In this document: piece by piece, positions 50,927-51,352 of the stretch
Layout: each line of letters opens with the position of its first letter
Numbering within the stretch: the stretch's first letter is position 1
Source of the DNA: Eledone cirrhosa
Taxonomy: Eukaryota
Assembly (NCBI GenBank): GCA_964016885.1
Contig: CAXHJY010000231.1
Coordinates: forward strand, 63,975-127,974
Direction: 5' to 3'
DNA length: 64,000 nucleotides
The notes under the pieces: model-generated
The model's database searches: none
What the model was told of the DNA's origin: nothing
The model's input: only the letters and a program-made list of their open reading frames with translations
Position numbers and translations under genes: made by a program

Positions 50927-51352
50927 AAAAACAAATAACGAAACGAAATTAAATTTCGTTTCGTTTGTAACTCACTTTTGTATGACTCACGTTCTATGCA
51001 AATTAGTCTGCCCACTACTAATTTTCATAGAAAAAGCATATAACGTTATGTGCTTTTACGATTCTCCAGAAAGGCCGGAAGATAGGTAAATATTGCTGAT
51101 GAGTTGTAACAACAACGAAAGTAGTTCAATATTCCTGTCTGGCTTTCTGGAGAAATAGAGGAAAGGTGTTTCCTCGAAAACCAGTATGACTCTAAAAACC
51201 GGTTTGTCTGTGTGTTTACATACGGAATAGCTGGACACTCACAGTAAAGTGTCCAGTGAAAAACTCGGTACATCTACATATGTACACGTGTGTGTATTCA
51301 TATGCATACTAGTATTTCAGTATACATATGTGGATGTACATTTTTAACTTAA
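50927..51352 (+). mobile_element. Non-coding HHR element (family G) with promoter-like cassette
   Basis: Octamer 50996-51003, ATTTTCATA 51021-51029, CATATAA 51037-51043 and a long HHR-bearing hairpin 51062-51154. TA-flanked. Confidence 0.75.
51089..51133 (+). ncRNA. Type I hammerhead ribozyme (family G, stem III imperfect)
   Basis: AATATTG-CTGATGA-GTTGT-aaca-ACAAC-GAA-AGTAGT-T-CAATATT. Stem I is extended by AGATAGG/CCTGTCT and TTCTCCAGAAAG/CTTTCTGGAGAA. Confidence 0.75.

Follow-up and report, generated by a model that had tools for sequence, protein, structure and literature searches.

Two families of hammerhead-bearing repeats in Eledone cirrhosa, here called C and D, are likely octopod type I hammerhead retrozymes moved by a Penelope-like reverse transcriptase (RT). 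Both carry a cassette in which an inverted pair of octamer-like boxes precedes a TATA-like word. Our preferred reading, which we hold only tentatively, is that this inherited pair could act as a unit-internal promoter for read-through transcription, met here in a rearranged retrozyme copy. All coordinates (Table 1) refer to the window, that is, the whole stretch of 64,000 nucleotides analyzed.

Table 1. Features of the D and C elements and of a likely Penelope-like element in the window
Feature	Positions	Strand	Details
Inverted 3′ tail copy (D)	50927..50991	-	hairpin 50936-50966; T5 end on its own strand; adjoins (TA)n
7-nt microhomology (D)	50985..50991		junction of inverted tail and 5′-truncated body
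Octamer pair (D)	50993..51031	+	octamer 50996-51003; loop motif CTGCyCAC 51008-51015; inverted octamer-like box 2 51019-51029
TATA palindrome (D)	51032..51057		contains TATA-like ATATAA 51038-51043; T4 run at its end
Rod, extended helix I (D)	51062..51154	+	folds strongly; pairing is retained by four of the five paired-site variants
Type I hammerhead (D)	51089..51133	+	helix I 51089-95/51127-33; core 51096-51102; helix II 51103-51116; GAAA 51117-20
Downstream hairpin chain (D)	51155..51352	+	fold z -6.6; T5 at 51341-51345; window copy stops before the tail and enters (TA)n
Family C copy C1, whole unit	16467..16924	-	head 16924; cassette 16886-16838; hammerhead core 16797; internal (TA)n; fixed 3′ end
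Family C copy C2	16925..17345	-	tandem upstream of C1; 5′-truncated inside box 2; hammerhead core 17288
Family C copy C3	14763..15110	+	inverted (fold-back) 3′ fragment and tail; 3′ end same as C1
Likely Penelope-like element fragment	35003..35930	+	GIY-YIG stretch 35003-35551 (PF01541, E 6.8e-5), then hammerhead at 35850

An earlier note on this DNA concerned positions 50927 to 51352, of which the first 65 nt are an inverted copy of the 3′ tail and not upstream sequence. Further copies of D were collected as contigs from four of 23 listed runs (X1, X6, X9, and X17, with four organism labels) and aligned to the stretch. Contigs of X1, X6, and X17 connect 50991 to 51352 with the two strands opposed, and X9 has a matching loose end. 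Other copies bear another head sequence, about 24 nt long, before 50985, with loose ends in X1, X9, and X17; the loose head end in X1 starts with the T run of the tail, as a head-to-tail junction would. Read from these sequences, the window copy combines an inverted tail with a 5′-truncated, tail-less body, joined at the 7-nt microhomology and set between (TA)n tracts. The D unit is ordered head, cassette, rod, hairpins, and tail, and we infer a length of about 465 nt by summing these parts. The family is abundant, as judged from 759 X1 contigs with a very high summed depth, although depth is not copy number. Copies with 90 to 99% identity were present at low depth under the three other organism labels (X6, X9, and X17), and X17 contigs enter unrelated flanks, as low-copy insertions would. 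These low-depth copies may stem from related species, from trace DNA, or from horizontal transfer.

The rod of D and its capping hammerhead, both described in the earlier note, were borne out. The rod folds strongly (z -6.0; -8.0 by a second estimate) and contains a type I hammerhead with a predicted cut after 51126. The Rfam family HH9 recognizes this hammerhead with 26.9 bits (E 1.4e-4), short of its gathering score of 52, and no Rfam match was obtained in the window at the gathering threshold. The rod of family C is weak (z -0.7). The reported 25-nt distance from the TATA-like word to the rod was found in D but not in C, where it is about 15 nt; the distance from TATA to the ribozyme core is 58 nt in D versus 46 nt in C.

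Outside the core, five paired positions of the rod vary among copies (51067, 51071, 51073, 51084, and 51104). Three of these variants produce G-U pairs on the plus strand, one is compensated at 51115, and one, at 5%, breaks its pair. Both changes of the helix II swap (51104/51115) were seen in X9 (depth, 30.8). The strand-specific retention of pairing through G-U, together with the helix II swap, indicates selection on the plus-strand RNA. The window copy itself is likely impaired as a ribozyme. Its base at 51121 is private: the position is C in 227663/227680 of the depth of X1 and in all of the depth of the other three runs. Other D copies have a palindromic CTAG loop in helix III, and the palindrome is also present in family C. 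As the private change spoils this palindrome, the predicted helix III self-duplex reaches -0.8 kcal/mol in the window copy versus -6.8 kcal/mol in C. Hammerheads with a palindromic helix III act as dimers in tandem transcripts (PMC4209133).

Family C is present in the window as three copies (Table 1). Copies C1 and C2 form a tandem that measures 491 nt from cut site to cut site, or about 440 nt without the TA tract of about 50 nt. As C2 is truncated inside box 2, its template included cassette sequence. The integrated 3′ ends (16467 and 15110 in C; the D tail end at 50927) lie not at the cut site but some 300 nt beyond it, where T-rich sequence follows a hairpin, which suggests a fixed priming site.

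Pairwise alignments, compared with alignments of shuffled sequences, show that C and D are distant sister families that are homologous along most of the unit. Gapped identity 3′ of the hammerhead was 62% versus a null of 52% (z 8.2; 0/500 shuffles), and similarity extended to the hammerhead (z 4.7) and the tail (z 2.9; 2/500 shuffles). Only the stretch from TATA to the hammerhead aligned less well (z 2.1; 14/500 shuffles). A masked self-BLAST of the window returned no C-D link. It had been stated earlier that the RNA downstream of the cassette differs between the families, and that a conserved cassette against a diverged body argues for function. The first statement does not agree with the alignments, and the second loses its premise, since the bodies are related and the cassette is inherited by common descent. 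A TGTTTACA word is kept at a hairpin tip 3′ of the ribozyme in both D (51211-51219) and C (about 16672-16665, minus strand), so factor-like words can persist in loops.

The assignment to retrozymes follows from the hammerhead anatomy, the tandem C pair 491 nt apart, and the GC content of the elements (0.34 to 0.35), evaluated against the criteria available for metazoan non-LTR retrozymes (Cervera and de la Pena 2020, PMC7229834). Like these, C and D have a canonical type I hammerhead, tandem units, a GC content below 45%, no open reading frame or LTR, and extensive self-pairing, and Penelope-like elements are present in the same genome. No terminal direct repeat was found in the unit, nor was a coding frame proper to the element; frames of more than 120 amino acids that touch it extend through the TA flanks, and the unit has no RT plus GIY-YIG frame. 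Unlike metazoan non-LTR retrozymes (150 to 450 bp, PMC7229834), the units are slightly longer (about 465 nt in D to 491 nt in C) and contain a candidate internal promoter.

Penelope-like elements are described in PMC8557442 as having inverted truncated copies, a one-ended tail, and (TA)n targets. Partial tandems, an inverted truncated copy, a tail at one end, (TA)n flanks, and a dimer-type hammerhead are likewise features that C and D share with Penelope-like elements carrying pLTR hammerheads (PMC4209133, PMC8557442). Unlike Penelope-like elements, C and D lack an RT or GIY-YIG frame, and their hammerhead is canonical and not minimal. The absence of the RT and GIY-YIG frame from the unit also led us to reject D as an autonomous Penelope-like element. 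A tRNA-derived SINE was rejected as well, as only one-mismatch matches to the consensus A and B boxes were found, and these overlapped or were unpaired. A search of the elements for A/B boxes, a 3′ box, and T-run depletion returned nothing.

No cephalopod retrozyme family is named in the accessible text of PMC7229834, whose supplementary figures could include some. A squid genome has already been credited with 235 Rfam hammerhead matches (PMC6962438). A search of largely open-access literature yielded no account of the C/D family or of a mollusc proximal sequence element (PSE). Overall, the pair of octopod retrozyme families is real and apparently undescribed.

The Penelope-like fragment in the window (Table 1) is of the kind of helper proposed and may be regarded as a putative helper of the two families. 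The window also contains LINE fragments, with an RT match in 6 of 17 frames. At least five further hammerhead families occur in it (3089-3266, 4229-4406, 32312-32687, 62669-62839, 1432-1663, 43745-43977, and 35726-35930); several of these are fold-back inverted copies between (TA)n tracts, and fold-back palindromes are common throughout. Visual inspection also pointed to tRNA-like SINE heads and a recurring family of SINEs at 15990-16090, 42567-42764, and 58588-59118. Exons of a host gene of the LicD/fukutin family lie at 59342-59732 and 63911-64000, with the retroelements upstream of the gene. For the exon at 59342-59731, identity reaches 58% with a protein of Octopus sinensis and 38% with a cuttlefish LicD, the only two matches among 91 candidates; by this measure the host is a cephalopod, likely an octopod.

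The octamer, box, and TATA motifs that the earlier note had reported are present in both families at the claimed positions (50995-51043 in D; 16886-16838, minus strand, in C). The octamer-led box of D (50995-51015) is followed by box 2 (51019-51029) and, 7 nt on, by CATATAA (51037-51043). The claimed conservation of spacing was also confirmed, as the octamer start and the start of the TATA-like word are 42 nt apart in both families; the octamer-to-box 2 distance is 23 versus 24 nt, and the TATA-like word (ATATAA versus TATATA) lies 19 versus 18 nt after box 2, inside palindromes in both. As a joint match, the cassette is far above shuffles (z 10.4; 0/500). Taken alone, the octamer 9-mer (2 found, 2.5 expected) and box 2 with one mismatch allowed (8 found, 7.2 expected) occur at chance level in the AT-rich window. 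Box 2 nearly repeats the octamer box in inverted orientation, and the pair is identical between D and C at 30 of 35 positions. In D it forms a 14-bp hairpin interrupted by a single C.U mismatch; the predicted stability is -11.3 kcal/mol in D and -3.9 kcal/mol in C, a threefold difference, and the region in C has a fold z of 0.2. Both arms of the pair are identical between the families, the mismatch included. The base that differs beside the octamer is paired in C and in D alike, and the loop-closing pair is swapped (U-A versus G-C). Family C has a shorter TATA palindrome centered on TATATA, and palindrome arms are swapped between the families (GCA/TGC versus GTA/TAC).

Other loci with a resemblance to the cassette were also considered. 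An element at 52582-53307 has a 55-nt terminal direct repeat and octamer-like words around TAGGCTGCCC that give it a cassette-like look. It was rejected as a third cassette bearer because, despite being the best match in 37 kb, it scored only 21 to 22 against a shuffle null mean of 23. The strict cassette pattern gave 0 loci in metagenome contigs and 0 in prokaryote genomes, and the octamer-box pattern gave one locus in viral contigs, with no similarity outside the motif. The octamer-plus-hammerhead pattern gave nine metagenome loci, none of which (0/9) had helix I/II pairing.

Under the promoter reading that we tentatively prefer, a POU-type factor would bind the octamer pair, and a polymerase that ignores T4 and T5 runs (likely Pol II) would start near the rod and read into the next unit. 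Two hammerheads would then pair through their palindromic helix III and excise a unit RNA of about 465 to 490 nt that holds the cassette. Through circularization and reverse transcription, the promoter would be copied together with the element, and the resulting insertions in (TA)n would be tandem, truncated, or inverted. Sequence-specific binding is pointed to by the identity of the arms, mismatch included, in spite of the difference in hairpin stability. A Pol II-type read-through fits better than Pol III, because copies carry the cassette, the ribozyme needs multi-unit RNA, and T runs, the established Pol III termination signal, would stop the latter. Furthermore, a promoter role is plausible because the cassette is the best-conserved 49-nt window between C and D (39/49 identical), holds a perfect octamer, has no site variable in at least 5% of the X1 copies (0/51), and has a precedent in newt satellite 2.

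Newt satellite 2 (Coats et al. 1994, as cited in PMC2220036) is reported to have an internal snRNA-type promoter used by Pol II. Like C and D, it is a hammerhead repeat with a palindromic helix III loop; however, its promoter was shown experimentally and in a different phylum, whereas that of C and D is one we infer. A Pol III promoter has been reported for the schistosome hammerhead satellite (cited in PMC2220036), and promoter-bearing retrozymes are reported from plants. In contrast, metazoan retrozymes seem to be without promoters according to a review (PMC7761336).

Several observations speak against the promoter reading. The excess of conservation in the cassette is borderline, and the X1 tail likewise has no variable site (0/58). 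The dyad is unremarkable among the six palindromes per element (0.4 to 0.7 expected), and the base differing beside the octamer pairs in both families, as it would in an RNA hairpin. Other hammerhead sites in the window lack an octamer-like word (0/7 of those passing the pairing filter, up to 160 nt upstream). The view of the review that metazoan retrozymes seem to have no promoters (PMC7761336) also counts against it. The integrated 3′ end of C lies off the ribozyme cut site, contrary to what a cleaved linear monomer template would give.

A rather unlikely alternative, though the one that survives best, is that the cassette works as a hairpin, in RNA or in single-strand DNA, that has a conserved CTGCyCAC loop and C.U mismatch and is recognized by a helper RT or by an RNA-binding protein of the host. 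In that case its resemblance to the octamer would be incidental and transcription would occur by read-through from outside, which is the view taken in PMC7761336. The 14-bp hairpin of D, the swap at the loop-closing pair, the swapped palindrome arms, and the fact that the element is a chain of hairpins all favor this explanation. However, the hairpin is weak in C, and its arms show no covariation, unlike the rod and helix II.

It is also unlikely, and somewhat more so, that the cassette is merely the stretch that happened to diverge least, with the dyad as a fold-back product of a hairpin-making RT. In run X1, the sites variable in at least 5% of copies numbered 0/51 in the cassette, 11/93 in the rod, 5/198 downstream, and 0/58 in the tail, in a variant table that leaves out differences near contig ends. 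The cassette does not differ significantly from the 17/309 variable downstream sites (Fisher P 0.15), and two X17 contigs across 50985-51032 show 4 and 2 differences. A naive Fisher test of cassette against body between the families (P 0.02) was set aside as post hoc in favor of permutation and neutral simulation. Permutation P values corrected for window choice were 0.17 to 0.43 (49 nt) and 0.06 to 0.16 (35 nt) across four scoring schemes. Simulated neutral divergence gave P values of 0.01 to 0.22 in the two best-fitting settings, in which the observed maxima were thus reached in 1 to 22% of runs, and up to 0.75 in the other four. These values, along with the richness of the window in fold-back palindromes, agree with chance. 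On the other side stand a cassette score density far above that of the downstream part (54 over 49 nt versus 38 over 149 nt), two exact runs of at least 11, seen in about 3% of the best-fitting simulations, and the presence in the conserved stretch of an exact canonical octamer. The earlier note had made its case depend on the cassette being better conserved than the rest of the element; it is indeed the best window, yet the excess is borderline after correction (P about 0.01 to 0.4). Constraint on the cassette is therefore suggested but not established.

The earlier note had proposed a functional U6-like type 3 promoter that may reveal the cephalopod PSE. Spelled out, a Pol III promoter of this kind (octamer, PSE, and TATA) would start a transcript near 51062-51068 that ends at a T run, and its box would copy the host PSE. 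While a promoter role as such is plausible, this form of it is improbable, as it fits the geometry and the T runs poorly. Transcription from such promoters starts about 30 nt past TATA, which would put the octamer pair at about -72 to -38, the slot of the PSE. PSEs lie at -70 to -40, and snRNA gene octamers usually at -250 to -170 (PMC9652321), whereas the octamer here is just 42 nt from the TATA-like word, even though that distance is the same in both families. Even in the compact mouse H1 core, the octamer, Staf site, PSE, spacer, and TATA together occupy 84 bp (PMC11340601). Two features are shared with type 3 promoters, namely an octamer upstream of a TATA-like word and, provided that transcription starts about 30 nt past TATA, conservation of the block that occupies the PSE slot; the second, inverted octamer-like box, the position of TATA within a palindrome arm, and the inclusion of the cassette in the copied unit instead of outside the transcript are not. 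Insect PSEA has an ATTC-CAA core with TATA past position 31 (PMC1761439). Box 2 has T instead of the conserved C, and TATA falls at position 19-20 in our own numbering of box 2, so an insect-type PSEA-TATA promoter was rejected on both core and spacing.

The sense strand of D has a T4 in box 2, a T4 at 51054, a T5 at 51341, and a T5 at the tail end. There is no T4 in 51062-51339, and T runs occur at or near the 3′ ends of both families. These T runs, together with 3′ ends away from the cut site, leave room for a role of Pol III. However, the absence of T4 is at chance level (0.62 and 0.52 of shuffles), and an RNA terminated by Pol III at the T5 at 51341-51345 would lack the cassette, which the copies nevertheless carry. 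It is equally improbable that the 35-bp octamer pair was captured from a host gene and represents the proximal element of octopod snRNA genes, in the form of a POU-plus-SNAPc composite.

How animal retrozymes come to be transcribed so abundantly is unsettled, as the review sees no promoters in them but promoters have been reported for the newt and schistosome elements. If the captured element were real, the retrozyme would carry an snRNA promoter that is normally external to the gene by cutting its RNA at the hammerhead and not at the start site. Thousands of mobile copies would then bear the smallest snRNA-type promoter known, a ready small-RNA promoter for cephalopod genetics. If the cassette has no promoter activity, C and D would be an ordinary new retrozyme family. 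If the octamer pair is a promoter, as we tentatively prefer, C and D would offer a molluscan counterpart of newt satellite 2 and might supply a usable cephalopod promoter.
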